Source: a virus
Taxonomy: Duplodnaviria; Caudoviricetes
Direction: 5' to 3' (one strand)
Virus record (IMG/VR): IMGVR_UViG_3300046167_000801
DNA: 64,000 nucleotides
Part shown: positions 15,150 through 57,597 of the stretch, one piece after another
How the letters are laid out: each line of letters starts with the position of its first letter
Position numbering within the stretch: the stretch's first letter is position 1
Notes under the pieces: model-generated
Told to the model about the DNA's origin: nothing
The model's input: only the letters and a program-made list of their open reading frames with translations
Databases searched by the model: none
Translations under genes and position numbers: made by a program

Positions 15150-15171
15150 TCACTTTTTTATTATTTTTTTT

Positions 15172-15197
15172 AAACCCACCGTAATGGTGGGTTTTTT
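15172..15197 (+). terminator. Intrinsic terminator after nrdA
   Basis: AAACCCACC-GTAAT-GGTGGGTTT inverted repeat followed by a T run. Confidence 0.85.
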
Positions 15198-15223
15198 ATT
15201 TACAACCATTTTAGTATTGAATA

Positions 15224-15231
15224 TATTTATT
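15224..15231 (+). promoter_or_regulatory. TATTTATT putative late promoter motif
   Basis: Immediately upstream of ATG 15235, the start of the baseplate block. Confidence 0.55.
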
Positions 15232-15234
15232 AGT

Positions 15235-15687
15235 ATGGCAGTAACGTATGGAATTGACTTTCCTTTTAGAGAAAGTCTCACAGGAGATTATTTAAAAATG
15301 ACTACAACCCCTGAAAAAGAGGTTAGAGGGAATCTTATTCACCTTATTCTTACTAAAAAGGGTAGTAGATATTATTTACCTGATTTTGGGACTAGGATAT
15401 ATCAATACATCTTTGATCAAAATGACATGGTTACATTCAACTTAATAGAAGAAGAAATAAGAGAGGGGTGTAAGAAGTACTTACCAAACCTTGACATAAA
15501 CTCAATAAAAGTAATTTCCTCAGAAGATGATTCTGACCCCGTTACAACGGTAGATGAAGAGGATGATGAAAGATTATTTAGACTTGCGGACGAATCAACT
15601 AAACCATACACCGCAAAAGTAAAAATTGATTACACAGTTAATAATGGTGCGTTTTCGTCATCAGATTTTATAATAATTAATATATAA
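15235..15687 (+). CDS. Baseplate wedge subunit, T4 gp25/gpW-like
   Basis: NLIHLILTKKGSRYYLPDFGTRIYQYIFD matches the GPW_gp25 signature. True start taken as MAVTYGIDFPF because the listed 15064 start runs through nrdA and its terminator. Confidence 0.85.
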   Translation: MAVTYGIDFPFRESLTGDYLKMTTTPEKEVRGNLIHLILTKKGSRYYLPDFGTRIYQYIFDQNDMVTFNLIEEEIREGCKKYLPNLDINSIKVISSEDDSDPVTTVDEEDDERLFRLADESTKPYTAKVKIDYTVNNGAFSSSDFIIINI

Positions 15688-25108: not shown

Positions 25109-26023
25109 ATGGCAGTAGGTAGTTATGGTACAGTTAGACCGGCAGATGTGTCACCAGCAGACGTAGAAATTTTCTATCATTACGTTTCGGGGAGAACATC
25201 CGACGCACCTGTACAATTTAAAAAATTAAATTCAGAAGATATATTAACACCTGTCTATCACAATTCAGATACGACGGACGCGGCTAACGCACCCGACGTA
25301 GAAATTTTAGGTGGGTTATATAATTTAAAGTTAGATACGGCGGACTTTGATGAGTTAGGTATATATACCTTACATCTTAGACCTAAACAGATAAGGACAT
25401 CTATAACTGATTGTGGGGTGTTAGCATCATTACCATCGGTAAGAGGAATTATTATAGATCTTAGTAATGTACCTGCCACAGATAGAAATAAGTTTAACCC
25501 TCAAGGGTTGGTTGGATACAGAGTTGAGTATTTGAATAGTGACGGAAGTAAAACCCCTAATTTTTATAGAGTTGTTACATCCTCATTCTACTGTACTCCT
25601 ATTACATCAAACCTGACGAGTACAACTCAAAAGGCGATAAGATACCAATACACAGACCAAGCAACTAATTTGTTGTTTTTAACGGTAACCCCGTCATCAG
25701 CACCATCAAATAGACCAAATACGGTACCTTTTATAGGGGAACCATCTCAAAATATAATTCTATCAAATACATTCTTTAACCCTACTACGGTTGAGGTTGA
25801 AATGGTAGAACATGACGAGACAACATTAGCATATGCATTCTATGGTAATCAGACTAAATCTATCTCTGATGGAATATATACAATCTATACCGCAGAAAAC
25901 AATATCTACAAACAATTTAACTTGTTTGAAGTAAGAGATGAGTTCAACGAAACACTTTTCGAAGTGAGAGAAGAGAGGGACGACATTGATGAAACTAAAA
26001 ACTTTGATGATATCACTGAATAA
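25109..26023 (+). CDS. Putative virion structural protein (304 aa)
   Basis: ORF in the structural cluster; 1-bp TAATG overlap with the next gene. Confidence 0.6.
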
Positions 26024-29000
26024 TGGCGAAAAGAAAAGTTCCAAGTCAAGCTGCAAGCGGAAGGGATACCTTTAATGATAACTTAATCGGTAATCAAATT
26101 ACTGATGGGTCAAGTCAGCTGACTGCAACAAACTTTTCGATAGATAAGACGATACCACAAAGAGATACTAAAAGTTTCACATCTGTACCTTTCTCTGAGT
26201 TCTTAACGATAGATGATCTTAAAGAAGAAACTGAAGCACCTAAAACTAAATCTAATAGGTCAGTAAAGAAAGAGGGTAAGGTAAAATTTAGACAAAATAA
26301 AGACGCGGGTTCTAAGACATTATTTGGGTCTTTAAATAAGAGGTTATCCTCATCTGTCAATAATATAATAGAACAATTCCCTGCGGGATTTTATATTGAC
26401 AAGGATACTCCCATTTCATTTTCACAATATACCGCTGAAAATATCACATACGATATTAAGGCGAGAACAACCACTTTTAAGTTTGAGAAGTCAAAAATAT
26501 TCAACCCTTTAGACATTGTACTTGAAAAACCTTCAAGTAATGTAAGTCCTGAGGTTAGTAATGAGTTTAAAAACTTTTTTGAAAATTATTCCAAGTACTC
26601 CCTTATTATTGATGAGGTAGAGTATGAAATACTAACATATTCAAAGGCGGGTACTGACGGACTTATAACATTAAAGGTTAAGGGTAAACCGTTTAGTGGA
26701 TCGACATACAGTGAAAACTTCCTTATTAGACCTATCAGTAATACTGTAGAAGAATTCTTCGAAAGTTTAGATGATTTAGAAAAGTTAATATTAGATAGGG
26801 AATCTTCACCAAGGTATACTGCGGAGTTTAAATTACCAAAAGATTCTTTAGATGGTTCTAAAACAGAAACAGTAACCACTAAAATTACTTGGCCAGTCTT
26901 TAAAGACAATTGGAATATAAAGATAGGAGGTACAGAATATCTCTCATACCTTGAAAGTTTAAAATCGATTGGTGATGAGATTGATCAATATAAGTCTAAT
27001 TTAATTTCAAGATTCTTAACGACCGCATCTCTAAACGAGTTTGATACTGAAGACCAAAGAATGTCTTCAATGTTTCAGATCTACGGTAGTGGGTTTGATT
27101 CTGTTAAGAAATTTATAGACAACATAGCATACATGAGAAATGTAAGTTATGATAAAATCAATAACATCCCCGATGTACTATTAAAGAATTTATCAAATAC
27201 CTTAGGTTTAGATTCTGTAAATCTATTTGATGAGAAAACATTTGAAGATACACTATATTCAAGAATAGAAAGTCAATTCGAGGGTAACAACCTTGGAATG
27301 AATATGGTTGAGGCGGAGGCGGAATTCTATAGAAGGTTGGTCATCAATCTTGTAAGAATTTACAAATCAAAAGGTACAAGAAAATCAATTGAATTTTTCT
27401 TAAGATTTATTGGTGCACCTGAACCTCTAATTAAAATAAATGAGCACGTATACAAATATGATGATGTAAAGAAGTTGTCTTTAGATATTGATAACGACAT
27501 TTATGATTTAACTCAATTAGAAAAAACATTCACTGTTGGTCATATAGACCTTGAGGATAAAACATATTCTTTTATATACCAAGGAATAACAACCACGGGT
27601 ACCACAACATATCAAGTAGATGAGTATCCGATAGTATTGACGGGAACAACAAAGTATGGTGATACACAAAAGATTGTAAGTGAGAATAATGATGTGTTCT
27701 TCCAAAAAGGTGCGGGTTGGTATGAGATAAGTTTACAACATAGGTCATCAACGGAATTAGATACAGAAAATTCTAATTTGTTGTCTAACCCAAAAATTAT
27801 AAAAACAAAGAATAAAGATTTCACGTATGGTGAAGATTATTTTGATTTATATCGACAGTTTTATGGGTTAGATTATGGACACGAATTACACAATACCATA
27901 GACAACAATAAAACGGAGTTATTATCGGATACAGATTCAAAAACTTTAAATAGAAAAAATATACAAATTTATCTATCGTCCGCACAAGGTATTGATTATG
28001 ATGTATATAGAAAATCGAGAGATTTAGAGGTAAGTTTCGGATTAAAGACTTTAGAACCTCAAACAGGTTTCACATTTGCGGAGTACATGGATAACGTATT
28101 GAATGAACAAATACGTAACTCACACACTGTAAAATACCAAAAATCTTATATTCAATTAGAAGATGTTTATTGGGGGTATTTAGAAAAAGTCGGTACACCA
28201 TATAGTTTCCCAACAGTTAATGAGTTCATTAATAGAATGAGTCCTCATTGGGTGGAAATAATAGAACAGTTTGTACCTGCAACAACTTTATGGACTGGTG
28301 GTAATATCTTAGAAAATAGTCGTATTGGTAGGTCCAAACACGATTACCTAAAACCGTGTACTATTGAACAGGTTGAGGACAATTTATATCCTAAATTAGG
28401 TTTCGAACACTCTATAGAGGAAGATTTAGAAGTTTATTTTTTAGGTGACAAGGATTTATTCAGGGGGTTAACTGTTGTAAGTGGGGTCACTTACGTCCTA
28501 AAGATAGTTTTAATGGGAGAAGAATATACCGCGTCTTCTCCGATCACACTTACAGGAGGACAATTATTTGATCCATTTATTTCTACTTCTGAATGTACAA
28601 CTATTAATGATGTTATTTTTAGTGGTGGTGAGACTTTTGACGGGTCAAAACATTTACCATTACTCTGTGATTTTAAATGTAATCTAAACCCTGACAGAGA
28701 CGTATTGGATCCTTTATGGGTCAATGCGGTCAACAGTATATTCTCTCAAATAAATGAAAAATATTATACTAAAACAGCATATACTGGTTATGACACCATT
28801 AGTAACCACGCGGGTGGAGAAGGATATGAAAGAATCACAGGTAATACAGAAACAAGTGATGAAAATCAAAATATAGAAAATGGGTTTAATAATCAACTAT
28901 CAACTAACGGTGAAAACTATGGATATGAAAATGTACCTATAGTTTCTCACGAAATCTTTACTGATAGTGATGGTGTCCAAAAAATAAGAATTACACCGTT

Positions 29001-32000
29001 TACATACGACACACAATTATATATTGCAAACCCTGGTGATCCATACGGTGATGCATACATACCCGCAGATTTAGATTGTTTAGATTTAAGTACGTTTGAT
29101 TTCTTTTGGGAATCAACATATCTAACAGGTACTACACAATGTGACCCTAAGGTTAAGGTTTACGGTCCTAATACTTTCTACACATTACCAGAGGATGAGG
29201 ACGATTGTATCTTAATGGAGGATGTATATTTTGAAGTATCAGGAGTTACATTTGGTAATGAAGATACTGTAGATGATGGAGATCCATGTACCGATTGTCC
29301 ACCATATAATACATCGTGGCCGTTAAACATATTCATAGATTGTGTGGGTGGATATAACGAATCAATTAGTGGTCATACATATACGGTTAATCATGTTTCG
29401 GGATGTACGTTTGTCGTTAACAATGTTAGAGAAAATGATATCATTGATATATCAATAACAGACGCTGCGAATTGTGATCAAAAAATAAGAATAGAGGGAT
29501 TACAACAAAAATTTGAATGGGACCCTGTAGATGGTGATGATGTGACTACATCAAGAAGTCATTATTTACAATACTCATTTGATACTTACGATGATGGGGA
29601 TGACCCCGATAGTAGTGACCCCCTTAATAGTCAATCGGGTATTACTTTCTGTGATAACTATTCAGGATATACTCTACAACCTATTGTACAATATAGACCT
29701 ACGTTTGATTATGGTCTAAGACAAAATACTAAAGTTATAAAAGTAAATAATGGTGTTATACTTGACGAAAATACAACTTGGGATCAAATACAAACCTATT
29801 TAGATGATAATACTTTAGAAAAAATAAACATTGAAAATGTTGTAATAGGTGATCAATTACTTTCAGGGGTATATAAAGATTGTCCTTTCTCATCTCAAGA
29901 CTATAACGATGCGGTTATTAGTGGATATTCGTTCTCTTATGATTACAAGGTCGTAACGGTTGAAAATAAAGACTGTTTAGGTTCCACAAAAATTAACAAG
30001 ATAAATGAGAGATTTAGTTTTTTACCTAACACTAGATTATGGGTAATGACTAAAACAATGGAAGATGGAAGTCAGGGTGATAATTGGAGATTCACTGAAA
30101 AGTATCCTGAAGAATTATACCCAAGACCTGATGACCCTATTGATCCTTGTTGTAGTTACCAAGTTGGTTACTATGAAAGTGGAGATTATATATTTAATGA
30201 ACATGGTTTCCCTATAGAAGTACTAAAAGTCGATTTAGATTATTGTGTTAGAGATTTATTTTACCATTTAAATGTTAGTCCAACATCAGTTTACGATGTT
30301 TCAACTAACTGTTCTGAAGTTATTCTTTTCAATGGAGACTCCGAAGATTGTGTATTAGTTGGACATGACGAACAGAAGTTCGAAAACATGGACATGAAAA
30401 TGCAACAATACTTCCAAGATAAGTTAGATTGTTCTGACATGCCGGATATAGATGACATTGAAAGAGATTTAACAGGATTAGATGATTGTGATACATTAAA
30501 TGCGTTTAAACTTAAACACTTTGATACGGGAGAAATAAGATATACCGCAATAAACGAAGATTTTAATATAGGTGATGCGGTAAATATTGAATTCATTAAC
30601 AGTGGATCTCAAAATGAAGAAATTAACCTAATTCAAAAATTATCACCAGGTCAAAATTGTTGGATTGTAATATCTAAAGTCTATGCCAATGTTATTGAAT
30701 ATATGGTATCGGGTCCATGTGATGATGTTAGACGACCAGGTCCATCGGCAACACCAACAAGTACTCCGACTCCCACACCTACACCTACTAATAGTCCAAC
30801 CCCTACACCTACTAGTAGTCCTACACCAACAAGTACAGAAACTCCTACCCCTACACCTACTATTAGTCCTACACCTACGGATACTCCAGTACCAACTAGT
30901 ACTGAAACACCTACACCTACACCTACGGACACACCAATACCTACGAGTACGGAGACACCAACACCTACACCCACACCAAATTGTGACTTTGACATAGATG
31001 TGGATTTGACAACTCCTACTCCTACACCTACTCCTACACCAACTATCGACTGTGATTTTGATATTGATGTGGATTTGACAACTCCAACTCCTACACCAAC
31101 AAATACATCGACACCTACACCAACTCCTACACCGAATTGTGATTTTGATATTGATGTAGATTTAACTACACCCACACCAACACCTAGCCCAACAAGTACA
31201 CTAACCCCAACACCAACTATCGACTGTGACTTTGATATTGATGTAGATTTAACTACACCCACACCTACACCAAGTCCTACACCTACATTAGATTGTGACT
31301 TTGATATTGATGTTGACTTAACTACACCAACACCCACACCAAGCCCAACAAGTAGTCCAACACCAACACCCACATTAGATTGTGATTTCGACATTGATGT
31401 AGATTTAGTAACTCCGACTCCAACAAGTACTAATATACCACCCACATCAACCCCAACACCTACTCCTACACCAAATTGTGATTTTGATGTGGACGTTGAT
31501 TTAGTGACACCAACACCTACACCAAGCCCTACAGAACCGATACCAACGAATGTCTCAAATCCAACACCAACCCCTACACCCACATTAGATTGTGATTTCG
31601 ACATTGATGTAGATTTGGTAACACCTACACCAACCTCAACTCCTACAAGTACTCCAACTCCAACGGAAAGTAGTACACCAACACCAACTCCATCACCTAC
31701 ACCTAACTGTGATTTCGACATTGATGTGGATTTGGTAACACCTACCCCAACTCCAACAAGTAGTCCTACACCAAGTCCTACAAGTAGTCCAACACCTACA
31801 CCCACACCAGATTGTGACTTCGATATAGATATTGATGTGGTAACTCCGACCCCCACACCATCACCAAGCCCAACAAGTACTAATACTCCTACATTTACTC
31901 CAACTCCAACAAGTACTAATACCCCAACACCGACTCCAACACCTAATTGTGATTTCGACATTGATGTAGATTTGGTAACACCTACTCCTACACCATCTCC

Positions 32001-33588
32001 GACTAGTACTCCAACCCCTACACCAAGTCCGAGTCCAACTAATACACCAACTAACACTCCAACGCCAAGTCCAACACCTAACTGTGATTTTGATATTGAT
32101 GTTGATGTGGTAACACCTACTCCTACACCATCACCAAGCCCAACAAGTAGTCCAACACCAAACCCTACTAGTACTCCGACTAATACACCCACACCAAGTC
32201 CAACCAATACACCTACCCCCACACCCACACCTAACTGTGATTTTGATATTGATGTTGATGTGGTAACACCTACACCTACACCAACAAGTAGTCCTACGCC
32301 ATCACCAACTAACACACCTACTCCTACACCTACTAATACACCTACACCAAGTCCGACAAGTAGTCTTACTCCAACACCAACAAGTACATCAACTCCAACA
32401 CCTACCCCTACGCCAAATTGTGATTTTGATATTGATGTTGATGTAGTTACCCCTACTCCTACACCTACTAATACACCTACACCAAGCCCAACAAGTAGTC
32501 CAACACCAACACCTAGTAGTAGTCCAACAAGTACTCCAACTAACACACCAACGCCAAGCCCAACAAGTAGTCCAACACCTAGCCCTACTAACACACCCAC
32601 ACCGACTCCAACACCTAACTGTGATTTTGATGTGGATGTTGACGTAGTTACTCCTACTCCTACTCCAACTAACACACCTACACCAAGTCCTACAAATACA
32701 CCTACACCCACTCCAACAAGTACGGAGACACCTACACCTACACCAACAAGTAGTCCTACCCCAAGTCCAACTAGTACTCCAACACCAACTCCTACACCGA
32801 ATTGTGATTTTGATATTGATGTTGATGTAGTTACACCTACACCAACACCATCCCCAACAAGTACTCCTACACCTACCCCAAGTCCGAGTCCAACTAATAC
32901 ACCAACGCCAAGTCCGACAAGTACTCCAACTAACACACCTACACCAAGCCCAACTAGTACGCCTACCCCTACACCTACACCTAACTGTGATTTCGACGTA
33001 GACGTTGATGTGGTAACACCTACACCAACACCAACAAGTAGTCCAACACCTAGCCCAACAGAAACACCTACACCAACACCTACTCCAAGCCCAACACCTT
33101 CACCAACACCTTCACCTACACCAATAGATTGTCCTGCACCATGTACGACAACAATAAACTCAGATCTATTCCAAACTTGGAACACTAACTTGGTTGGGTC
33201 CAACTTTAAAGAATTGGGTGGATATTGTAATGAAGTGAGAGATAAGAGTGGTAATGTAGTATCAACGAATAGTGAAGAATGGACTTACGACACAAACACA
33301 TGTATTGTTTACGTTTACTATGAAGGTAGTACTATGAGAAGGAGTTGTATTGGGGAGCATACATCACCTGTAGGGACTGAAGTAAGTTCTTTTGACCATA
33401 CAGATGGTACCCTTACACCAACAGGTTCAAATAGGTTATTTGATACTGATATAAGATTTATAGATAATGATAATAATGCAATCATAATAGTAACCGAGTG
33501 GGATTCCACATTAACATCATTATTACATGTTCACATTTTATGTGACTGTAGTTTTGAGGGGGATGTTACCGTTCATAATTTGAATTAA
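26023..33588 (+). CDS. Giant baseplate/tail protein: gp7/P2 gpI-like wedge domain, then a Pro/Thr-rich array with 17 CDFD(I/V)D(V/I)D motifs
   Basis: 2521 aa. [15 protein letters not shown]...[28 protein letters not shown] resembles the tail protein I / gp7 core. C-terminal ~800 aa is (TP/SP)n with a repeated CDFD motif. Confidence 0.7.
30742..33123 (+). repeat. In-frame low-complexity repeat array (PT/PS linkers separated by a tgtga(c/t)tt(t/c)ga motif, 17 copies)
   Basis: Copies counted in the translation; first motif codon at ~30982, last at ~32986. Confidence 0.9.
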
Positions 33589-33606: not shown

Positions 33607-36600
33607 ATGGCAAGAATATTCGACATAAAAATAACATCAGGGACTTCACACAGTCTCTATACGATATACTACGATCAAGTCGATGCCGCCAATATCGCAA
33701 CAAGAGTGAGTACCTCATTACCTGCAACGGGTGTGACGTACAATGATTTAACAAGTGGTTCGGGAGTTACGGTTAGTGTCCCTAACAGTGCAACTTCAAT
33801 ATTACTATATAATAATTCATGTGTGATTGATGATGAAATTATTTTACCAACCCCAACTCCATCACCAACACCAACAAGTACACCCACCCCTACACCAACA
33901 AGTAGTCCTACACCAAGTCCTACACCAAGTCCGAGCCCAACAGAAACTCCTACACCAACTCCATCACCTAGCCCAACTAACACACCTACACCAAGTCCAA
34001 CGACTAGTCCAACACCTACACCTACACCAAGTCCAACTCCAAATTGTGATTTTGATATGGACATCAATGTGGTTACACCAACACCAACACCCACACCAAG
34101 CCCAACAAGTAGTCCAACACCAACTCCGACTAGTACACCAACACCTACACCAAGTCCAAGTCCGAGCCCAACAGAAACTCCTACACCAACACCGAGTCCG
34201 ACGACAAGTCCTACTCCAACTCCGACTAGTACACCAACACCTACACCAAGTCCTACACCAAATTGTGACTTTGATGTTGATGTTACACTTAATACAAGAC
34301 CCTCCATAATAGTACCTAATTTTTCTCAAACAGAAAACACGGCAACGGGAACTACAATAGGTAACTTAGTTGCAAATGATGATGAGGGAGGAACGTTTAC
34401 GTGGGTATTTGAAGATACCGCTAATTATCCTGATAATAATTCTTTCTCATTGACTAGTGGTGGGGTATTATCTAACGCGGAGGTTTTCAACCATGAGGTA
34501 AAAAGTTTATATACTTTATATGTTAAGGTCACCGATAACGGTGGATTAACAAATACAAGAGAATTTACGGTAGACATAGTCGATGTTAATGAAACACCAT
34601 ACGGTTTAACCTTAAGTAATAATTCACAAAGAGAAAACACACCAACGGGGACAACAATTGGTATTTTTTCGGGGTTAGATGTTGACAGTAACGAAACATT
34701 TACATACGCACTAACGGGTAGTGGTAATAATAATTCGGCGTTCGCCTTATCAAGTTCGGGTGTACTAAAAAATGCAATAGTTTTTAATTATGAGGTTAAA
34801 AACTCTTATAGTATTGAAGTGACGGTTACGGATAGTGGTAATAACACTTATACGGATACATTTACAATTTCAGTACTTGACGTTAATGAATCACCAACAA
34901 ATTTATCCTTATCAAGTAATAGTATTGCGGAAAATCAATCTACAGGAACAACAATAGGTACTTTCAGTAGTACGGATGTTGATTCGGGAGATAGTCATTC
35001 TTATGAACTTGTTAGTGGTTTAGGAGATACTAATAATGGTTCATTTACATTAACAAGTGGTGGTGTTCTAAAAAGTAAAGAAGTTTATAACTATGAAGGT
35101 AAGAACAGTTATTCTATAAGAGTAAAAACTACTGATTCGGGGGGATTAACCCACATAGGTATATTTACGATTTTGATTACAGATCTTAACGAAACCCCTT
35201 CTAACATAACACCATCAACAGTATCATTCCAAGAAAATCAATCGACAGGAACAACAGTTACTACATTCACCGCCACCGATGTTGATTCGGGTGATACACA
35301 TACTTTTGAATTAGTAAGTGGTCTTGGAGATACCAACAACGATTCGTTTAGTTTGAATAGTAATGGTACTCTGACATCTAACGAGGTGTTCAACTACGAA
35401 GTTAAAAACTCCTATACAATAAGAGTCAAAGCAACAGATTCAGGTGGTTTAACACACGAAAGATCAGTAACAATTAATATCACCAACGCAAACGAAGTAC
35501 CTACAGATATAACTTTAAAAAATAATAATATTCCTGAAAATAGTTCTACGGGTACTACGGTTGGTCAATTATCCACAACAGACCCTGACGCAGGAAACAC
35601 ATTCACATATACATTAGTAAGTGGAGTGGGTGACACTAATAACAGTTCATTTAAAATAAGTGGTGATAAGATTCAAAGTAGTGAAATATTCAACTATGAA
35701 GTTAAGAACACTTATTCAGTTAGAGTAAGATCGACAGACCAAGGTGGTTTATACAGAGAAGAATCGTTTACTATTAATGTAACTAATGTTAATGAAACTC
35801 CAACAAACATATCATTATCTAATTCATCTATTGATGAGAATGTGGCAACAGGGACCACTGTGGGAACATTATCCACAACAGACCCTGACGCAGGAAATAC
35901 ATTTACATATACATTAGTAAGTGGTGTTGGAGATACCAACAATGGTTCATTTTATATAGACGGAACGACCTTAAAAAGTGGTGAAGTTTTTGATTATGAA
36001 ACCAAGAATTCATACACAATAAGAGTAAGATCAACAGATCAAGGAGGGTTATGGTATGAGAAAAAAATAATCATATCAATAACAAATATATCTGTATCAG
36101 GTACTCTTAGTGGAACAAACTTAACTTGTTATAATGATTCGTCAGGTGAGATTGAAGTTACATCACAAACGGGGGGAGATTCACCATACACGTATAGTAT
36201 AAACGGTATAAATTATCAAACATCTACGACATTCTCAAACCTTTCGGCGGGTACGTACATTGTTTCTATAAAAGATGACAATGGTGAAATAGGTACAGTA
36301 AGTAAAACAATAACACAACCACCAGTATTAAACATAACTGATTCACACACAGACCCAACATGTTATGGGGGGAGTGATGGAGAAATACAATTTTCTGTTG
36401 TTGGTGGAACAGGTGAAATAACTTATACTATAAATGGTGACGAAACAACGGAAACACTTCACTCAGACTTGAGTGCTGGTACTTATACTTTCATCGCGAC
36501 AGATGAAAATAGATGTACTGATAGTAGGGTTGTAACTTTAAGTGTAACACAAGTATCCGCAACAGTAACACAATCTAATGTCACATGTAACGGTGGTAGT

Positions 36601-39600
36601 GATGGTTGGATTAATGTAACTTCAGCTATAGGAGGATCAGGTAGTGGATATGAAGTCAAATTAAATAGTAATGGGACCTACGAAACTTTAACTGATTATA
36701 AACTATATTCAACTTTATCGGATGGAACATATACTATTTATGTTAAAGATGGTGATGGTTGTGAAAGAACATATAGTATAACAATTACGGAACCCGCGGC
36801 TGTAACATTTACAGAAACACATGTTGACCCAACATGTTGGAATGGTAAAGACGGTAGTATTACTCTTACAGCTTCAGGAGGTAACGGATCTTACGAATAT
36901 CAGTTTAATGGTTTTTGGCAATCATCAAACGTAAAAACAGGTTTACGGACAGGTAGTAATAGTATAAGAGTAAGAGACGGTAATGGATGTACTTCAAGTA
37001 TTGGGTCTGTTACTTTATCTACTACAAAACCATTTGCAACTATTACGTCCACAAATGTGGTATGTAATGGTGACGACGATGGTACAATATCGGTTTCTAA
37101 TCCAACAGGTGGGTCGGGAGCAACATACCAAGTCAAATTAAATAGTAATGGAACATATGTTAACTTAACAGGTACCCAACTTTATGAGGACTTATCACCA
37201 GATACCTACAATATTTATATTAAAGATAGTGATGGTTGTGAAGGGATTTACATTAAGACCATTACAGAAAACAATGGAGTTACTGCAAGTACTGCATCAA
37301 CGAATCCAACATGTTTTGGTGATACTGATGGTTCTATAACTGTTACAGGTAGTGGTGGTACGGGATCGTACACTTATAAAATAGGTAGTGGATCTTATCA
37401 AACATCAAATTCATTCACAAGTCTTGGTAATGGAACATATACGTTATATGTTAAAGATAGTAATGGTTGTGTGGATACCACATCAACAACATTAAATAGA
37501 ACACAAGTAAGTGCATCAATTTACAGTAATCAACCTTCATGTAATGGAGGTAATGATGGTGACATCACATTATCATCAATTACGGGCGGAAACGGTGGTA
37601 CGTATCAGTTTAAATTTGAAAGTGGTAATTGGACTAATTTTAGTTCCGCAGTAACGTTTACAAATAAATCCGCCGGAACATACACAATACAGGTTAGGGA
37701 TGGTCAACAGTGTAGTAGAAGTTATTCTTATACTTTAGGTCAACCAACAGCAGTAACATCATCTGTATCTGTAACCCATCCATCTTGTGCAAATAGTAAA
37801 GACGGATCAATAACCATAACAGGTGGTGGTGGATCGGGATCATATGTGTATTCTATTAATGGGTCAAATTATTACATATCTAATACATTTAATAACTTGT
37901 CTGTAGGAAGTGGTACCGCATATGTTAAGGATACTCGTGGATGTATAAGTACAGTTTCGTACACTTTGACAAAGACTAACCCAACAGCAACCATTTCAGT
38001 AACAAACGCATTGTGTAACGGAGACAGAGGATCAATAACCGTTTCTAATCCATCAGGTGGGAATGGAGGTACATACCAAGTTAAATTAGACACAGGATCG
38101 TATCAGAACTTTTCATCTAATTCATATACATTCACTTCAGTAACTGTTGGTAGTCATACTATTACCATAAAAGATGGTGATGGTTGTGAAAGAGGGTACA
38201 GTAGAAGTGTTACAGAGCCAACGTCGGTTGTTGTATCGTACACTAGTTTATCTCATCCTTCATGTAGTTACAGTAGTGATGGTAGTATAAATTTTGCGGT
38301 TAGTGGTGGTTCAGGTTCATACACATACAGACTAAATGGTACATTAATAACTAATATAACGGTTACAGGTTTAACTACAGGTTCTTATGTTTTATATGCA
38401 GAAGATGATAATGGGTGTAGTGATTCAGTTTCGGTTAACTTATCTAAATCTTCACCATTGGCTACAGTAACTACGTCTAACCCAAGTTGTAGTTCGGGTA
38501 GTGGTGCGATTACAGTATCGAGTCCTGCGGGAGGAAACGGACCAACTTATGAATCAAAAATTGGGAATGGTCCATATACAACAATAGGTAGTCCAACAAT
38601 TTACTCACCTCTATCTTCAGGAACATATACAATTACTATAAAAGACGGAGATGGATGTACAAGGACATATGATAGAACAATAACAATACCTACAGCAGTA
38701 AGTTTCACCACTTCAGTAACCCACCCAACATGTAATGGGGATAGTGACGGAGAAATAACATTTACTGCAAGTGGGGGTAATGGATCATATCAATATTCCA
38801 TAAATAACGGGATAAATTATCAGTCAAATAGAACTTTTTCTAATCTAACTATAGGGACATACCTATTGAGAGTTAAAGATGGTGAAAATTGTAGTACTAC
38901 AGGTACAGTAACTTTAAGTAAAACAGACCCTAGTGCGACATTCACTATGTCATCTGTGAGTTGTAACGGAGGTTCTGATGGAGAAATTGAAGTTTCAAGT
39001 ATGACAGGTGGTAATGGTGGAACATATTCACATAGATTTGGTTTAGGTTCTTACTTAACCACGTCCCCTCATACTTATAATAATTTATCTGCGGGCGATC
39101 ATTATATTACCATAAAAGATGGTTCGGGATGTACAGAAGCATATACGATCACAGTCACAGAACCAACGGCACAAACGGTTTCTATAACATCGTTTACCAC
39201 AACAACAGGAAGTACGGGTAGTATTACCGTGACATCTACGGGAGGTGTGTGGCCAAAAACTTATAGATTATATGAGGATACCACTTCACCATATACGGTT
39301 GGTGGTGGGACATTAGTTGCAACAATTACAGGTGTAACTTCGGCCAACCATTCACAGACATTCAGTAATTTATCACAAGGATATTATTACGTCGTAGTAA
39401 CAGATGCGAATGGATGTACCGCCAACAGTGCAACTATTGAAAGTACATTTGATGATAGTGATGGCTGTAATTGTGTAGAGGTCGGTGTTATTTCAAGTAA
39501 ATTAACAAACGGTGGTCAGGATTTATACTACGTTAATAATGATTGTGAAAATGGGTTGACTGATATAAACCTAGCTCAATATTTAGCGGAGATTGGTGAA

Positions 39601-39780
39601 GACGAGGATAGTAATATTTTTAAATTCTGTAGTCAATCACCAGTTAGTCATAGTTTTAAATATGGTTTAGGTGGTAATACTTTCGATGGACCTCAATCAG
39701 GGGGGATAACAGTAACACCTTTTGATACTTCGTGTACTCAAAACTCGGATTGTAGTAAAAGTATTAAAGGATTCGAATAA
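33607..39780 (+). CDS. Adhesin-like tail fibre/virion protein: N-module, PT linkers, 6 cadherin-like domains, ~13-14 SprB-like repeats, Cys-rich C-terminus
   Basis: 2057 aa. Six ~100-aa units of the type ENxxTGTTIG...DxDxG...F(N/D)YExKNSYxIRVxxTDxGGL...DVNE, and repeated C(N/Y)GGxDGxIxVxxxGGxGxYxY units. Confidence 0.8.
34291..36090 (+). repeat. Cadherin-like domain tandem repeat, ~300-bp period
   Basis: For example 35569-35640 and 35869-35940 are near-identical with synonymous differences, exactly 300 nt apart. Confidence 0.85.
36110..39440 (+). repeat. SprB-like repeat region
   Basis: Thirteen C-x-G/N-x-x-DG-type units plus one degenerate unit in the translation. Confidence 0.75.
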
Positions 39781-39852: not shown

Positions 39853-40440
39853 ATGGCAGCATCAAACGACTATCAAGTAACATTCACATTAAATGGGTTG
39901 TACACAGGAACTACGGAGGCAGATAATTTCACTATTGTCGGTAAACACTGTAATGGTTCTCCTGCAGATACAATAATTGCAACAGGGGTAACCGCATCAG
40001 ATTTAACTACTGGTGTTACATACACAATTGCAGCAACAATTTCGGGAGGAACAATAACATCAACAGGAGACTGTACTAATTCAGTACCTTGGGCAGGTTT
40101 AACGTGTGAAGGTGGAGAAATACCAACACCTACCGCAACGCCAGAACCTTCATCATCTTCAGTTTTTGTAGTTAGTAGATGTAACGATGATCAACTATTC
40201 TATTTAGCTGATGATATAAGTTGTATTGAGGGTAATTTAAGTACTCCTCCTAACCCAAGTATTTATATTGTGGGTGAATATGTACAATTTACAGATGGTA
40301 CTTCTTGTAATTCAGAACAAACTTCATATTGTGGTATAATCACAGCAGTGAATTCAGTATCTGAAAGAAACGCAGTATTAATCAAACACGAACTTCTTAA
40401 CAAATCAAAAGGTTGTACGAATACAGAATGTATGGAATAA
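39853..40440 (+). CDS. Cys-rich two-module virion/fibre accessory protein (195 aa)
   Basis: Short PT linker; the C-terminal VSRC..D...YCG module is shared with 41932..42915. Confidence 0.65.
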   Translation: MAASNDYQVTFTLNGLYTGTTEADNFTIVGKHCNGSPADTIIATGVTASDLTTGVTYTIAATISGGTITSTGDCTNSVPWAGLTCEGGEIPTPTATPEPSSSSVFVVSRCNDDQLFYLADDISCIEGNLSTPPNPSIYIVGEYVQFTDGTSCNSEQTSYCGIITAVNSVSERNAVLIKHELLNKSKGCTNTECME

Positions 40441-40462
40441 CTTAACTTGTTTAATATACTTT

Positions 40463-40492
40463 AAAAAACCCGTTATTATGACGGGTTTTTTT
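40463..40492 (+). terminator. Intrinsic terminator (possibly bidirectional)
   Basis: AAAAAACCCGTT-ATTAT-GACGGGTTTTTTT inverted repeat. Confidence 0.85.
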
Positions 40493-40517
40493 ATTTAAAG
40501 TAATCTACTTATTAATG

Positions 40518-40525
40518 TATTTATA
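40518..40525 (+). promoter_or_regulatory. TATTTATA putative late promoter motif
   Basis: Upstream of ATG 40529, directly after a terminator. Confidence 0.55.
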
Positions 40526-40528
40526 TGT

Positions 40529-41650
40529 ATGGGATTAATTGTAAGGGTATTTGATATTGTTTCACCTAATGACTTTGATTTAAGTATTGGGTTGTCACCT
40601 TATGGACCGTTTACAAAATTAGATGGACCTAGACCTGATAATTCTTGGCCAAACTCTACGGACAGAGACTATAGAACTGAACCAATTTATATTGGTGACA
40701 ATGAACCCGAAGTGGTTAATGGTATACCATCATCATCAGAAGTAATATTTTATGATTTAGAATTTGACACCGAATTTTGGTTGAAAATGGAGGATAAAGT
40801 AAACGTTATAGATGTATGTGAGAACAATCAAACACCAAGGTACATTGTAGAAAACATATACATACATGATAGTAAGACATTTGAATGTTACGATAAGATA
40901 AAGTTTAGTGTATCTTATGAATGTGTACTACCACCAACACCAACACCCGAACCGACACCAACACCCGGACCAACTTCGACACCGGGAATAACCCCAACCC
41001 CAACACCTACATCAATTGTACTTGATGACGAGACCGAAATTAATATATTCTTTGATAATTCGGGGTCTATGAGTGGTACCAAATCCCCGTTAGATACTAT
41101 GGCGAGTACGATTCTTAAAGATTGTTTATTACCATTTTATAACAATGACTCAGCACTGTACGATAGTAGGGTAAGAGTTTTAAATATGTCGGAGGAAGGT
41201 TTTTATGAAAGAAGTTACGGTTGTCTATCAACGACTGGTACAACATCATCAATTACTCAAGTTATAAACTTATCATTTCAAGATGAAGGTGCCTCATCTC
41301 TCCACGGTAGTACTGGGTGGTCTAACACAGACCCAAGAACTTCCACTTTTGATAATGACATGGTACTTTTAAGAAATAACATTGATAATAATCCACTTAA
41401 TTATATTGTTGGAGAAATTTTCCAAGTCGAAACTAGTACTACTGGACAGTTTTTGTCCTTTAGAAATTTATTGGAAGCGGTTGAAAATGGTTTAGGTAAT
41501 TATAGTGGTGTTAATGGATTATCTGATAAAAGTCAAATACATAATACCTACGGTGTTACTCCATCGAGTACTCCACAATATTATATGGGACTTATAATTA
41601 CAGCGATTAATAATTTAGGTTATAGTATACCTGATTGTACAGAAGAATAA
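40529..41650 (+). CDS. PT-linker protein; C-terminal domain begins with a vWA/MIDAS-like motif (INIFFDNSGSMS)
   Basis: 373 aa. DxSxS motif after a hydrophobic strand; PT linker in the middle. Confidence 0.55.
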   Translation: MGLIVRVFDIVSPNDFDLSIGLSPYGPFTKLDGPRPDNSWPNSTDRDYRTEPIYIGDNEPEVVNGIPSSSEVIFYDLEFDTEFWLKMEDKVNVIDVCENNQTPRYIVENIYIHDSKTFECYDKIKFSVSYECVLPPTPTPEPTPTPGPTSTPGITPTPTPTSIVLDDETEINIFFDNSGSMSGTKSPLDTMASTILKDCLLPFYNNDSALYDSRVRVLNMSEEGFYERSYGCLSTTGTTSSITQVINLSFQDEGASSLHGSTGWSNTDPRTSTFDNDMVLLRNNIDNNPLNYIVGEIFQVETSTTGQFLSFRNLLEAVENGLGNYSGVNGLSDKSQIHNTYGVTPSSTPQYYMGLIITAINNLGYSIPDCTEE

Positions 41651-41651
41651 T

Positions 41652-42915
41652 ATGGGGAGAATAGTAAGACTAAATATTTCGTTAGATAACAGTCATTCAT
41701 TAGATGACTTTCCCGTTGATTTATATTCGGGTTTAACAAGTGGGGATACAACTAATTTAGTGTATGCGAATATAGTTAGTGAGGATATACCACTTGATTT
41801 AATGTTTGAGGATAGTGATTTAAATATTAGTAATGACCCTAATAATCCTTTCGTACCGCACTGTTATATGAGAATATCGTCTGACGGATGTTACGATGAA
41901 ATAATAAAATTGGAGGTACCAAGGGTAGATTGTGAAATATGTGTGGATTTTCAAGAAATCATACCAGAACCAACACCCTACTTCAATACCACCAACACCT
42001 ACTTCAATACCACCAACACCCACTTCAATACCACCAACGGCAACGGAAGGACCAACACCCACCCCAACACCGACATTACCACCTGGACCTACACCTACTC
42101 CAACAAGTACACCTACTCCAACACCGTCATCGACACCAGGTGAAAGAGGATGTAGGTTTGTATTTGTACCTGATACTATTAGTACAACAGGGTACGGTTT
42201 AGATTATGTTCAAAATGGGGTTATAATACTTACACGATTCACTGATATTGCCGGTCAATCGACGACTTATGATGGTGTGGTCGGGACAGTTTTCGGTGTG
42301 TGTAGTGAAACTTACCCACTATATTATGATTTCGATGGTGGGCAAGGTGCAATAACTGACCCGGTTGGTGTGGAAAGACCACCAAATGGGGGTAGTTGTA
42401 GTATTAATAAGAGTTGTATATATACACCCCCAACTCCAACCCCAACAAGTACAGATACACCAACAACATGTAATGAGTACTCATTATATATGACAGGACA
42501 AGGTGAAACGTCTTCACAATGGGAATGGACGACCTGTGGAGGTTCAACCACGACATGGACAAATGTGGGTTCTAACTATAGGGTTGTATGTTCAGAAACA
42601 ACACCGACATTAAATTACGGTGATGGGTTTAGTTTACTTAACGGGGATTGTGGTAATTATACGGTAAGTAGATGTACTGACGGACAACAATTTACTGTTG
42701 CCAAAAATAAGAACTGTATGACAGGTACACCACCAACATATAGTGTTGGAGATGTTATCCAATTCAAACAAATGAACGTTACTAACGGTTCGTGTTATGG
42801 TGAGACCTATTGTGGTACTATTACCGCCACGGACTCAAATACACCACATAACGCGTTAGCAAGTAGGAACGCAACAGTTGATGATTGTAATGATACAACA
42901 CATTGTGGTGAGTAG
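41652..42915 (+). CDS. PT-linker Cys-rich modular protein split by a +1 frameshift at ~41977 (listed ORFs 41652..42143 and 41932..42915)
   Basis: Frame 1 reads ...FQEIIPEPTP and then degenerates. The +1 frame continues TSIPPTPTSIPP... An extra C in the first 21-nt repeat unit explains the break. Confidence 0.65.
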
Positions 42916-42931
42916 TTTTAGAATGAGGATA

Positions 42932-42939
42932 TATTTATA
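42932..42939 (+). promoter_or_regulatory. TATTTATA putative late promoter motif
   Basis: Upstream of ATG 42964. Confidence 0.55.
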
Positions 42940-42963
42940 TAATAAGAATTAAAAAATCATAGA

Positions 42964-44550
42964 ATGGCAAGAAAGTTTACAGTAACATTAACTAGTGGAA
43001 CCGATCAAGGTCCCTATAATATATACTACGATACCGTATCCGTAGGAACACTTGCAGATCTATTCGGTACATCAAATAAAGCGGAGAATCTAACACTATC
43101 CCAAGTACAATCTGGTGTAGTAATAGAAGTACCCGATAATGCAAATAGTATCATATTCTTTAATACTAATCCCGATGTTGCAACCGACTGTCCAACAAAT
43201 ACAGAAATTTTTAATTTAACATCCCAACCAACACAAACACCCATACCAACATATACTCCGGTACCAACAGAAACACCAACACCAACACCTACGGATGAGG
43301 TCACATGTCAATGTTATGAGTTTATTAACGCAACTACCAATGCTATTTCATATACATATACTGATTGTAGTGGCACAAGTATAGAGGCGGTTTCCGACAA
43401 AGAACCATGGACATTCTACGTATGTGCTCAAAGTATAGACAGTGTTACTAATAGTAAATTAACATATAGTCTTTACGGTTCATGTTCTGAAGGGGTTTGT
43501 GATAACATGCCAACACCAATACCAACATATACACCGGTACCAACAGAAACACCGACACCTACACCTACTCCAAGCCCAACGGCAGATAATGTACAGATCA
43601 GAAATCTAAAATTTGCACACTGTAATACGGTAGAGACCTCACCTGTTAGTGAAGAGGTGGGTACTCAAGCTGCTGGAGGACCATCAGAACCACCTATTTA
43701 CTTAACTACAGATGAATATGGGTCTACACCAACGATAGGGGATACAGTATATGTAAGACTTGATGGTGAGACTAATAATAAATGTTATGAATATATAGGA
43801 ATAGAAACAGGGGCTAATGTATCTCTCACTATAATTAATACTTCATGTGTATGTCCGAGTTTAGAACCAACAGAAACACCAACACCAACACCTACAGAAA
43901 CACCAGCACCTACAAGTATAGAGGAACCATGTGTTGATATAGAATTTAATGGAAAAAGTGAAACCGTAGGTGGTACTGTTACATATGAAGATTGTGATGG
44001 TAACACACGTACTTTAACGGTACCTGGTGGAGATAGTATACCGGCACCTACATGTGTTAGAAATAATTCGTGGACGTACAGTATTCCAGATAACTTCACA
44101 CCTGCAACATTAGTAGTAGGAGATTGTGGTAATTCTAATGGATCAGAAGTAACACCAACACCAACAGCCACAAGTAGTAAAGGTGACGTAGGTGGACCAA
44201 TCGGAGCGAATGAGTACTACCTCAGTTCGGGTAGATCAGTTTCGAATGATTTCTGTCAAGCACCAGGTTACACCGCCACCAGAGCAATAACATCTTCCGC
44301 CACATCTATTGGTAATATGTTGAATACTACAGTATATGATGATGGAGATCCAATTGTAGGTAACCCATTACTATTTTATTTTGTATCTGAAAGCCAAGGT
44401 GAGAACTCAAATGAGACAGTTGGTAATCCACAATACATAAACATTAGTGAACAGGGGGTTGTAACAGACGTAGGTCAAATGTGTGGTTCAGGGACTGGAG
44501 AGAATCCTTATAGTGAGCCAATCAATCCTACATCAACCCCGACTGAATAA
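42964..44550 (+). CDS. Modular PT-linker Cys-rich virion/fibre protein (528 aa)
   Basis: N-module homologous to the N-terminus of 33607..39780; CVDIEF...CDG...VPGGD...CVRxNSW module shared with 44628..46595. Confidence 0.7.
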   Translation: MARKFTVTLTSGTDQGPYNIYYDTVSVGTLADLFGTSNKAENLTLSQVQSGVVIEVPDNANSIIFFNTNPDVATDCPTNTEIFNLTSQPTQTPIPTYTPVPTETPTPTPTDEVTCQCYEFINATTNAISYTYTDCSGTSIEAVSDKEPWTFYVCAQSIDSVTNSKLTYSLYGSCSEGVCDNMPTPIPTYTPVPTETPTPTPTPSPTADNVQIRNLKFAHCNTVETSPVSEEVGTQAAGGPSEPPIYLTTDEYGSTPTIGDTVYVRLDGETNNKCYEYIGIETGANVSLTIINTSCVCPSLEPTETPTPTPTETPAPTSIEEPCVDIEFNGKSETVGGTVTYEDCDGNTRTLTVPGGDSIPAPTCVRNNSWTYSIPDNFTPATLVVGDCGNSNGSEVTPTPTATSSKGDVGGPIGANEYYLSSGRSVSNDFCQAPGYTATRAITSSATSIGNMLNTTVYDDGDPIVGNPLLFYFVSESQGENSNETVGNPQYINISEQGVVTDVGQMCGSGTGENPYSEPINPTSTPTE

Positions 44551-44598
44551 AACATATTGTTAAATTGTTTTTATCGGTTTATTATTCTCTTTCTATTG

Positions 44599-44606
44599 TA
44601 TTTATA
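44599..44606 (+). promoter_or_regulatory. TATTTATA putative late promoter motif
   Basis: Upstream of ATG 44628. Confidence 0.55.
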
Positions 44607-44627
44607 TACATAGACTAAATAGATATA

Positions 44628-46595
44628 ATGGGTAATCTTGTAACGGTTAAAAATAATTATGATAATGGAGTGTGTAGTGGGTTTACCATATATACAGGTA
44701 CAACCTATAATGGACACCCATTTACAATACCACCATCAGCAAACAGTATTGGTTTTCATACATTACCACATACTTTTGATATTGGTTTTTATAGTGGGCC
44801 ATTATATGTCTTTTTAGAACATTGTGATAATCATATTTCACCCCCTCCAAATGAAGACCCAAAAAAACAAGGTGGATTCCAAGTAGTATTAATAGATGTT
44901 GATTGTGAAGTATGTCCACCAAACTCAGATGCAATTAATTGTACAATGGTTGTTAGTTTTGTAGAGGAGACGTTAACGGATTGTAATTTCAGTGTTAGTT
45001 TTGTGGAAGGTTCATACCCCACACCTACGGGTACCCCAACAAGTACGGAGACACCTACTCCCACTCCAACAAGTACGGAGACTCCAACACCTACAAGTAC
45101 AGAAACACCCACACCAACACCAATCGTTGTGTCGGACATTGACGTATTTTTAAATAATGGTAGTTCACCGAGTTCGATTTACTCGTATAACCCTAATACT
45201 ACGGTATTAACGTATTTATTTGACTCGACTAACTCATCATATGATATTGCAAACACAAGCAATAAATTATGGGTATATGACGGTGGTGCTAGTACTTCAT
45301 TGTTAGAATACGACATAACGTTAAATCCTTTCTCCCAAACCTTCAATAGAACTATAACATCAGTATCTTCAAATTCTGGTTTATGTGCAATTAATGACAC
45401 CACGTTAATAAACATTGATGGAAGTGATGTTTATGAGTTAGATATAACAACTAATGTTCCTTCCGCAACACTTAAATGGTCGATGATTACAGGAAGAGTG
45501 GTTCAGGGGGATTATATGTACACCACAACAAATAAATTAATTGTTACCAATAACGGTTATATTACTCAGTATGATTATGCCACTGGAACTGTTGAGGTGG
45601 ATATAGACATAAGCGGAACCATACCAAACGCTTACGGGGTATTCGAATATGGGTCAGGTATATATATAGTCGATGTTGGTGGAGAGATTTACCAAATAAT
45701 GGGAACTTCACCTTATACTTTAACATTGGTAGACGATGTACTATTCACGGTATATGGGGCATCTCAAATCCCTTCAAAAATAACCGAAGATTTTACACCC
45801 GTCACCGAATCAACATCAACACCAACTCCAACAAGTACGGAGACGCCGACACCTACACCTACTAATACACCAACGCCAAGCCCAACAAGTAGTCCAACAC
45901 CTACACCTACAAGTAGTCCAACACCCACAAGTACAGAAACATCTACCCCTACTCCCACTCCAACAAGTACGGAGACACCTACACCTACACCAACAAGTAC
46001 GGAGACACCTACACCTACACCAACAAGTAGTCCTACACCAATACCTACAGATACACCAATACCGACATATACTCCTATTCCAACAGAGACACCAACCCCA
46101 ACACCTACAGAAACCTGTGTTGATATAGAATTTTGTTCGAAGGAAGGGACTGCAGGTTCTGAAGTACAATATGAAGGATGTGATGGTATCACATATAATC
46201 TATCTGTACCTGGTGGGGATTGTGTACAACCACCTAGATGTGTTAGAAGTAATTCATGGATATATAGTAATCCAAACAATATGGAACCTGTAACATTACT
46301 ACCAGGAGATTGTGCAGGATCACCACCACCACAAACAGCAACACCTGTACCGACAGCATTACCGACTTGTGTGTGTATAGAGTTTACAAACATTTCAACT
46401 GGTGACAGGGCGGGATATTACGATGATTGTAGTGGAATATCACAAACAGTGGTTGTTGGGTCATATGCGACGGAAAAGGTGTGTGGAGATGGTAACAACA
46501 TAACAGTATCGGACCCTAAAGTACAATATCAAATAACAGGTAATTGTTTTGAAGGTAGTTGTCCTGATAATGATAGAGTAGAAGAACCCAGATAA
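44628..46595 (+). CDS. Modular PT-linker protein with a probable beta-propeller-like central domain and two Cys-rich C-terminal modules (655 aa)
   Basis: Repeated short beta-blade-like units ([48 protein letters not shown]) between PT linkers. Confidence 0.6.
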
Positions 46596-57547: not shown

Positions 57548-57577
57548 TTGTACATTCAACAAATTTGTTTAACTTTG
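57548..57577 (+). promoter_or_regulatory. Bacteroidota-type promoter TTG-N19-TAACTTTG upstream of clpP
   Basis: Exact match to the established -7 consensus TAnnTTTG, with TTG 19 nt upstream. Confidence 0.6.
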
Positions 57578-57597
57578 AAAAATCAACAAAACACATT

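Follow-up and report, generated by a model that had tools for sequence, protein, structure and literature searches.

The array and its carrier protein

The IMG/VR virus record IMGVR_UViG_3300046167_000801 (Duplodnaviria; Caudoviricetes) supplies the window analysed here, a stretch of 64,000 nucleotides (nt) in which the open reading frame (ORF) at 26023-33588 on the plus strand translates into a protein of 2521 amino acids (aa), referred to below as P0001. In its C-terminal third this protein carries a long array of short, Asp-rich strand motifs, each with a single Cys, strung on proline/threonine (PT) linkers. What we establish is the motif itself, its conservation at the level of the peptide, its spread among phages, the graded spacing of its copies, the modular core and add-on architecture of the carrier protein, and the baseplate-module context in which that protein is encoded. 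The parts of the carrier are the following.

26023..33588, + strand: carrier protein P0001, with a conserved core of ~1400-1560 aa, the PT/motif array and a 154-aa C-terminal domain (ORF list, translation, more than 120 core homologs)
26023..30729, + strand: N-terminal core, aa 1-1569, of a widespread phage structural family in which many homologs are core-only at ~1413 aa (homolog search, AlphaFold2)
30730..30981, + strand: motif-free Pro/Thr leader of 84 aa ahead of the first motif (translation, regular-expression count)
30982..33015, + strand: array of 17 CDFD[IV]D[VI]D[LV][TV] strands with PT/PS linkers of 13-57 aa between them (regular expression, codon comparison, IMG/VR relatives with the same design)
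33016..33123, + strand: last PT linker, 36 aa, leading from the array to the C-terminal domain (translation, regular-expression count)
33124..33588, + strand: C-terminal beta-rich domain of 154 aa with 7 invariant Cys (alignment of array-bearing relatives; AlphaFold2 predicted local distance difference test, pLDDT, 57-83)

The Pro/Thr/Ser-rich region occupies aa 1570-2367 (nt 30730-33123), in agreement with the span of 30742-33123 given in the original prediction, which was made from the letters of the DNA without database searches. Its 798 aa include 252 T, 232 P, 84 S and 76 D, so that Pro, Thr and Ser together make up 71%. That prediction had also described 17 motifs on PT linkers, each with a hydrophobic face, an acidic face and one Cys, and both statements hold: a regular-expression count finds exactly 17 CDFD.D.D motifs in P0001, all of which fit C-D-F-D-[IV]-D-[VI]-D-[LV]-[TV], with Cys codons running from nt 30982 to nt 32986 (aa 1654-2322) and with Asn or Asp nearly always standing directly before the motif. 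Laid out as an amphipathic beta strand, the motif sets positions 1, 3, 5, 7 and 9 (C, F, V/I, V/I, L/V/I/N) against the Asp residues at positions 4, 6 and 8. Outside P0001 and the product of the next gene, P0002, the CDFD.D.D motif is found in no other frame or place of the 64-kb window, and its occurrence is therefore not a matter of chance.

When the 17 copies are compared, synonymous changes appear at seven of the eight core codons (GAT/GAC, TTT/TTC, GTN, ATH), whereas Ile/Val swaps are the only changes among the residues. Invariant residues combined with free synonymous variation mean that selection acts on the motif peptide and not on a DNA repeat. Tandem Repeats Finder returns many overlapping periods across the array, from 12 to 156 nt with 61-100% matches; the array is not a young perfect repeat.

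Such constraint on a short peptide invites the thought that [ND]-C-D-F-D is a modification or processing site, marking the Cys or a neighbouring Thr for a cross-link, a glycan, a lipid or cleavage. The single invariant Cys preceded by Asn or Asp would suit a site of this kind, as would the nucleotide-sugar genes present in the same window (51550-52735). On the other hand, the alternating pattern extends over 8-10 residues, beyond a typical recognition site, no modifying enzyme is linked to the array and, to our knowledge, the motif matches no known modification site. We accord this explanation a very small probability.

The window as a whole is low in GC (~33%) and coding nearly throughout on the plus strand, and its GC skew turns negative at 30-34 kb, consistent with the C-rich Thr and Pro codons there. 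Two candidates were set aside in this region. A reverse-strand ORF at 30681-33203 (840 aa) is the opposite strand of ACN/CCN-rich sequence, and the synonymous-site pattern follows the plus-strand frame. The Bacteroidota O-glycosylation sequon, D-[ST]-[ALIVMT], was found on reading to match neither the motif nor the linkers, and the proteins are in any case cytoplasmic.

Spread among marine phages

A degenerate DNA pattern for the motif, run against IMG/VR, returned 24 stretches with arrays of up to 18 copies, so that the motif does occur in other phages, a point on which the original prediction had proposed a search. Array-bearing proteins are also present among ENA, JGI and NCBI proteins. In the nearest IMG/VR record (G001, 31 kb) the corresponding protein is ~2600 aa long, 98% identical, and carries 18 motifs; all of the length differences between the two, including one whole unit, fall within the 5' half of the array, where the linkers are short, and the 3' half is identical. 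The P0001 gene is itself recovered, at 96% or more of sampled words, in seawater and other marine metagenomes from at least 13 studies, as well as in one viral-fraction metagenome and, in part, in metatranscriptomes. Among GenBank phages the core finds no match by megablast or tblastn and no cultured relative was found; literature searches on the motif, on PT-rich phage fibres and on SprB/cadherin phage proteins turned up nothing relevant, and we came across no account of such an array in phages.

An assembly artefact, the concern raised alongside the original prediction, is ruled out by the occurrence of arrays of the same design in ~20 IMG/VR contigs from different samples, by the ENA, JGI and NCBI proteins, and by exact-match short-read unitigs from four independent runs, which supply pieces throughout the array. 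Among the unitigs listed, none spans the whole 2.4-kb array, and the copy number in those four samples is thus without independent confirmation.

Across lineages the motif takes the form [ND]-C-x-F-D-[VI]-D-[VI]-[DN]-x-x, with lineage-specific tails (...DVV, ...DIA, ...DNITT, ...DVIFP), and C-x-F-D-[VI]-D-[VI]-D is kept between lineages whose cores are only ~40% identical. In P0006 an acidic-swapped form, CYFEAEFGE, retains the acidic character though the identity of the residues changes. Within lineages, the tail variant of the large protein matches that of the product of the next gene (...DIA as opposed to ...DVV/NVV). A 176-kb phage contig carries one array of 10 copies in its P0001 homolog and another of ~10 copies in its homolog of the window's gene 44628 (L030).

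Array length ranges from 5 to 18 motifs among phages with similar downstream genes. The position of the array is constant: it always lies between an N-terminal anchoring part and a variable distal part, the latter being the conserved C-terminal domain, vWA-like domains or a short acidic tail. In several other lineages (P0005, P0015, P0041, P0046, L029) the array ends, instead of in a folded domain, in a conserved acidic tail of ~35 aa, C-D-[LM]-[TG]-Y-E-[LI]-x-E-S-[DN]-Q-G-I-I-T-E...I-E-E, which from its sequence may be a docking peptide.

Graded spacing of the motifs

From the N- to the C-terminal end of the P0001 array, the motif-to-motif spacings are 23, 29, 29, 23, 29, 32, 38, 39, 35, 45, 45, 51, 61, 67, 61 and 61 aa. 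This widening is a new observation of the present analysis and is a conserved property of the arrays. In every one of the 26 arrays with at least six motifs the spacing rises from N to C, the rank correlation of position with spacing being positive throughout (median Spearman 0.89, and at least 0.88 in 15 of the 26). The gradient extends over at least six lineages that differ in motif tail, in linker periodicity (~6 vs ~10 aa) and in cores that are ~40% identical, and it recurs in a different carrier protein, not just in P0001 homologs. The shortest spacings, 19-23 aa, correspond to linkers of 9-13 residues. Such a gradient might favour in-register pairing, might let a tight bundle splay towards its tips, or might reflect the sites at which slippage is tolerated.

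The last of these possibilities leads to a reading of the whole array as an evolutionary by-product, in which unequal crossing-over between PT-coding repeats duplicated a unit of last strand plus PT linker, the copies being a tolerated linker variant without a role and the gradient a mirror of where slippage is tolerated. The folded modules of these phages do typically end in a Cys-containing alternating strand before a PT linker, tandem-repeat periods of 12-48 nt within the linkers point to slippage, and copy number and linkers change fast, as the 17 vs 18 motifs at 98% identity, with every indel in the 5' half, illustrate. Neutral copies would be expected to decay, yet eight core residues stay invariant over 17 copies amid synonymous variation, the motif is conserved across lineages with ~40% identical cores, and the N-to-C gradient appears in 26 of 26 arrays from six or more lineages. 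Slippage without function is in our judgment very unlikely to be the full account.

The core family and the distal domain

The core has more than 120 homologs in metagenomic contigs of large phages, up to 351 kb in length. Many of these end at ~1413 aa, while others add varying C-terminal parts: PT linkers with folded Cys-rich modules, vWA-like, DUF285, LamG-type and beta-propeller domains, or motif arrays. With so many homologs consisting of the core only, the array plus its tip is an add-on, and P0001 can be read, at the level of sequence, as an anchoring core followed by an optional tether and a tip. The core family matches nothing in Pfam or PHROG, and it resembles a platform on which receptor-binding modules can be swapped. 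An AlphaFold2 model of aa 1-1200, built on a 46-sequence alignment, has a mean pLDDT of 63.7 and places immunoglobulin-like (Ig-like) domains at aa ~1039-1162.

The 154-aa C-terminal domain is shared by close array-bearing relatives at 49-99% identity, with its 7 Cys invariant. Pfam yields no hit to it, and none of its fold matches is significant: the lipocalin-like and beta-barrel rows are weak, with E > 0.1. The extreme C-terminus of P0001 (33540-33588, aa 2506-2521) is motif-like, is left unpaired by AlphaFold at pLDDT < 50, and may be an 18th, degenerate strand.

The original prediction had taken the carrier for a gp7/gpI-like baseplate wedge protein, an identification that we could not sustain. 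T4 gp7 is, like P0001, a very large protein of a baseplate module, encoded downstream of gp25 and gp6 genes, but there is no detectable relationship between the two: a 27-sequence core profile scores a probability of 0.2% (E 0.3) against T4 gp7 in hhalign and finds no hit among PDB sequences, and Pfam, PHROG, Foldseek against PDB and BFVD, VIA wide and ESM Atlas do not support a gp7 identity either. Foldseek against PDB and VIA wide, run with the core model undivided into domains (pLDDT 63.7), return only Ig-like matches at aa ~1039-1162, and the fold searches overall yield nothing but Ig-like domains and uncharacterised phage proteins. A language-model lead from the core to Pfam Baseplate_wedge clusters scores only 0.76-0.78. 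The position of gp7 is taken in the window by a gene of 1294 aa directly after the gp6-like gene (17582-21466), whose product has no BLASTP match to T4 gp7.

Structure prediction of the array

AlphaFold2 was applied to aa 1570-2521 as a single chain with 12 homologous rows. The resulting model has a mean pLDDT of 38.8 and a predicted template modelling score (pTM) of 0.32, with linkers near pLDDT 30 and a beta-rich C-terminal domain at 57-83. In it, 12 of the 17 motifs are modelled as strands with hydrogen bonds by DSSP, at local pLDDT 50-59. When the model is compared by VIA-align with 48,161 PDB chains, the stack of strands best matches curli CsgA (8c50_A, Z 7.2, root-mean-square deviation 6.0 Å, 158 residues aligned) and then parallel beta-helices; a Z of 7.2 lies within the range that VIA-align calls common and below its specific level. 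The network would thus seem to prefer motif-motif pairing in a parallel stack, which is a preference of the model and not evidence that the stack exists.

The gene neighbourhood

P0001 is encoded within a baseplate/tail-fibre gene module, on the strand shared by all genes up to 48940. It is the sixth gene after a gp6-like gene, with five unnamed genes between them. The named features around it are these.

15064-15687, + strand: gp25-like gene, marking the start of the module (Pfam GPW_gp25)
15689-17521, + strand: gp6-like gene, likewise marking the start of the module (PHROG baseplate wedge subunit)
33607..39780, + strand: P0002, the next gene, 2057 aa, with a small N-terminal domain, PT linkers, two motifs, 6 cadherin domains and at least 11 SprB repeats (translation, Pfam)
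39853..46595, + strand: five or six further genes of PT-linked, Cys-rich modules, with Cys plus alternating-hydrophobic strands beside PT linkers (translations)

The baseplate association put forward in the original prediction is accordingly upheld by the gp25-like and gp6-like genes upstream and the adhesin-like genes (cadherin, SprB repeats) downstream. Two further statements about the downstream genes proved correct. The next gene does carry two more motif copies, at nt 34045 and nt 34264; these are 73 aa apart and conserved in relatives. Related strands of Cys plus alternating hydrophobic residues do precede PT linkers further on, as CTMVVSFVE and CNFSVSFVE in gene 44628-46595 and as CEICVDFQE in gene 41652-42143. 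In several of the phage proteins, folded modules end with such a Cys-containing alternating strand directly before a PT linker, which suggests from sequence comparison that duplication of a last strand together with its linker gave rise to the array.

Within the same run, 41652-42143 and 41932-42915 belong to a single gene that has been divided by one additional base, near 41979 in a tract of PPTPTSI repeats; without that base, the homolog in G001 reads as one 431-codon frame. The split is either a sequencing error or a real frameshift. The protein encoded at 40529-41650 has, after a PT linker, the peptide IFFDNSGSMSG with a DxSxS signature resembling a metal-ion-dependent adhesion site (MIDAS), and has no Pfam hit; in relatives (P0027, P0038, L021) a similar vWA-like domain is fused right behind a motif array.

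Cellular genomes and the likely host

When 185,579 species genomes were scanned for the motif, arrays turned up in a single 248-kb contig; it is binned as a Flavobacteriaceae metagenome-assembled genome and is probably a phage. Single motif hits in these genomes are about as many as the information content of the pattern predicts by chance. Seven of them (L044, L046, L048, L050, L054, L055, L056), however, come from a single family of large surface proteins of Flavobacteriales, made with a signal peptide, in which the 9-residue peptide of the phage motif closes a jelly-roll N-terminal domain with weak PPC/GBD_T9SS_assoc hits; we read one full-length member as ending in a C-terminal domain of the type IX secretion system type. 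The motif peptide can thus serve as a terminal strand of a sheet. In the phage the motif is not the last strand of a complete folded domain, the strands standing alone between PT linkers. Among GenBank phages, the gp6-like neighbour alone finds distant relatives, namely Flavobacterium phages, a 484-kb uncultured phage and a Microcystis phage. Taken together, the SprB repeats, the nearest gp6 relatives and the binned contig indicate that the host is probably a member of the Flavobacteriia.

Host and neighbourhood bear on two further readings of the array. In the first, which the original prediction had offered as an alternative to zipping between chains, the array is a docking scaffold: each motif would be a donor strand that completes or extends the beta sheet of a partner, for example the small N-terminal domains of the downstream PT-tethered adhesins, so that a single thread anchored at the baseplate would become a branched fibre bearing many adhesin modules. 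Small N-terminal domains, PT linkers and modules of the Cys-rich or adhesin type are indeed encoded by six to seven genes in a row; the motif is common to P0001, to the next gene and, in another phage, to the homolog of gene 44628; and the same peptide is a terminal jelly-roll strand in Flavobacteriales, with a motif-like tail ending the C-terminal domain of P0001. The alternating hydrophobic residues are likewise those seen in the donor strands of chaperone-usher pili. Against docking, no cohesin or dockerin, nor any other docking domain that is known, was found in P0001 or the downstream proteins by Pfam, we identified no partner whose fold is incomplete, partners that bear the motif themselves point to like-with-like pairing and not to a strand in a groove, and array length varies more than threefold despite a similar set of downstream genes. 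We regard a docking role as fairly unlikely.

In the second, the Asp faces, with Ca2+ bound, would adhere to surface polymers of the host or of marine particles, acidic polysaccharides among them, making the array a long capture thread of low affinity and high avidity, in a logic comparable to that of mucus-binding Ig-like capsid decorations. Seventeen identical acidic patches on a flexible thread, the seawater habitat and the adhesin-like neighbours (cadherin, SprB) all fit this picture, and the likely host group lives on algal polysaccharides. It leaves unexplained the strictly conserved Cys and Phe of the hydrophobic face, which would be exposed and prone to aggregation, and Pfam scans show no similarity to any carbohydrate-binding module. 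Multivalent ligand binding is, in our estimation, distinctly improbable.

A proposed baseplate-anchored tether of pairing strands

The interpretation that we favour, while holding it to be somewhat short of probable, is that P0001 is a long tether anchored at the baseplate and projecting its distal domain, in which the amphipathic acidic strands pair with each other and are probably locked by Ca2+ and disulfides after release. The virus would be an uncultured marine myovirus, and the array the stalk of a fibre or adhesin associated with its baseplate. The ~1400-aa core would anchor P0001 in the virion, and ~800 residues of extended Pro/Thr thread, with a contour length of perhaps ~250 nm at ~0.3 nm per residue, would project the small Cys-rich distal domain. 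Motif strands could pair between the copies of the chain on one virion, within the chain, or both; the thread would thereby be bundled or compacted, taking on a beaded or stacked form. The Asp face would disfavour pairing in the cytoplasm, which is reducing and poor in Ca; in seawater (~10 mM Ca2+, oxidising) cations may bridge the Asp ladders and the single Cys of each strand may form a disulfide, so that the fibre would set only after release. P0002 and further PT-tethered proteins from related phages, which carry the same strands, could be drawn into the nodes formed by such pairing and co-assemble.

The proposed lock of Ca2+ and disulfides is inferred from the Asp face, from the one Cys that each hydrophobic face carries, and from the seawater habitat. 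Ca2+-dependent pairing also gains from the Ca-dependent cadherin domains of the neighbouring gene, and the shortest linkers, at 9-13 residues, would be about the length needed for a return connection between parallel strands, which speaks for pairing. We also count in its favour the selection on the peptide, the retention of the motif between lineages with distant cores, the constant placement of the array between anchor and distal part, the strand pairing in the AlphaFold2 model, the co-varying motif tails, the sheet strand of the Flavobacteriales proteins and the place of the gene in the baseplate module.

Several points weigh against this tether of pairing strands. Its presence in the particle is putative, being read from the position of the gene. 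The structural model is of low confidence (pLDDT 38.8, pTM 0.32) and its best match commonplace (Z 7.2); a single modelled chain, moreover, cannot separate intra-chain from inter-chain pairing and is likewise silent on partners. Motif numbers are both odd and even (17, 18, 12, 10...), and simple pairing of Cys within a chain therefore cannot be complete. In L021 and L024 the first two motifs are 11 aa apart, nearly back to back, which does not fit a parallel stack. The match to the Flavobacteriales proteins may be chance, and the co-variation of motif tails between the large protein and the next gene amounts to about one independent change, which gene conversion could explain. Lastly, the rising spacing is left unexplained by strand pairing, the ideas of register and of loosening at the tip being speculation.

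A bolder version, which we consider doubtful, would make the graded array of orphan strands a new viral assembly element: a zipper or cross-beta spine, triggered by Ca2+ or oxidation, that recruits several PT-tethered adhesins (the cadherin/SprB protein and others) in trans into a branched or net-like capture organelle at the baseplate, the widening spacing setting register or geometry.

Comparison with known systems

The original prediction called the array scaffoldin-like. The PT linkers of that comparison are present, and cellulosomal scaffoldins share with P0001 both the long Pro/Thr-rich linkers between many repeated units and the idea of a scaffold that gathers other modules. Its domains are not: the Pfam scan of P0001 finds no cohesin, the sole match being a sub-threshold, low-complexity DUF3153, and Pfam reports no dockerin in P0002 and nine downstream proteins, giving cadherin and SprB only. 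A scaffoldin cohesin folds into a dockerin-binding domain of ~150 aa, whereas the phage unit is a 10-residue strand; and scaffoldins are secreted, the phage protein being made in the cytoplasm of the infected cell.

Curli CsgA and parallel beta-solenoids share the use of short strand-forming repeats, although parallel stacking of the phage strands appears only in the low-confidence AlphaFold model. The CsgA unit is strand-turn-strand and the phage unit one strand, the phage loops are disordered, 13-57 residues long and growing, and there is no sequence homology. Fungal Als adhesins and plant extensins offer a further analogy to the array: in them an extended Thr- or Pro-rich stalk bears short self-association or cross-linking motifs, by which the molecules are clustered or networked. 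Unlike the array, these are glycosylated cell-wall proteins of eukaryotes that rely on an amyloid core heptapeptide or on Tyr cross-link motifs and have no graded spacing. RTX beta-roll repeats are short and Asp-rich; the low Ca2+ of the cytoplasm leaves them unfolded and they fold on meeting Ca2+ outside the cell, the same logic that we propose for the phage fibre. They differ in following one another directly as Gly-rich nonapeptides (GGxGxDxUx), in lacking Cys and PT linkers, and in binding Ca2+ in turns.

Among phages, large myoviruses with branched multi-fibre systems offer a comparison: one of them, Klebsiella phage phiKp24, reportedly encodes many receptor-binding proteins in a row and assembles them into one complex baseplate apparatus. 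Its fibres are said to be folded trimers attached through N-terminal adaptor domains, and they are not known to include a PT thread with orphan strands.

Phage tail fibres and baseplate adhesins decide which cells are found and infected, and those known are trimers folded as rods or spikes. The large marine phages described here, a common group, would appear to build part of its adsorption apparatus from a very long, disordered-looking thread with a conserved short strand and a spacing gradient. If the strands do zip or stack, they would represent a new route from minimal sequence to a fibre that is long, adjustable and self-setting. Such a fibre would be of interest for how phages adsorb in seawater that is dilute and rich in particles, and also as a motif for protein materials. 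The ~1400-aa core family, with its swappable C-terminal add-ons, should help to mark out receptor-binding modules among large phages that are uncultured.

Other genes in the window

Two adjacent genes at 51550-52735 encode cytidylyltransferase-like and mannose-6-phosphate-isomerase/cupin domains of nucleotide-sugar metabolism, and could be linked to glycosylation of DNA or of Thr-rich virion proteins. Further on, the window encodes a ClpP-family protease (57565-58272) and a sigma-70-type sigma factor with regions 2 and 4 (59515-60327).

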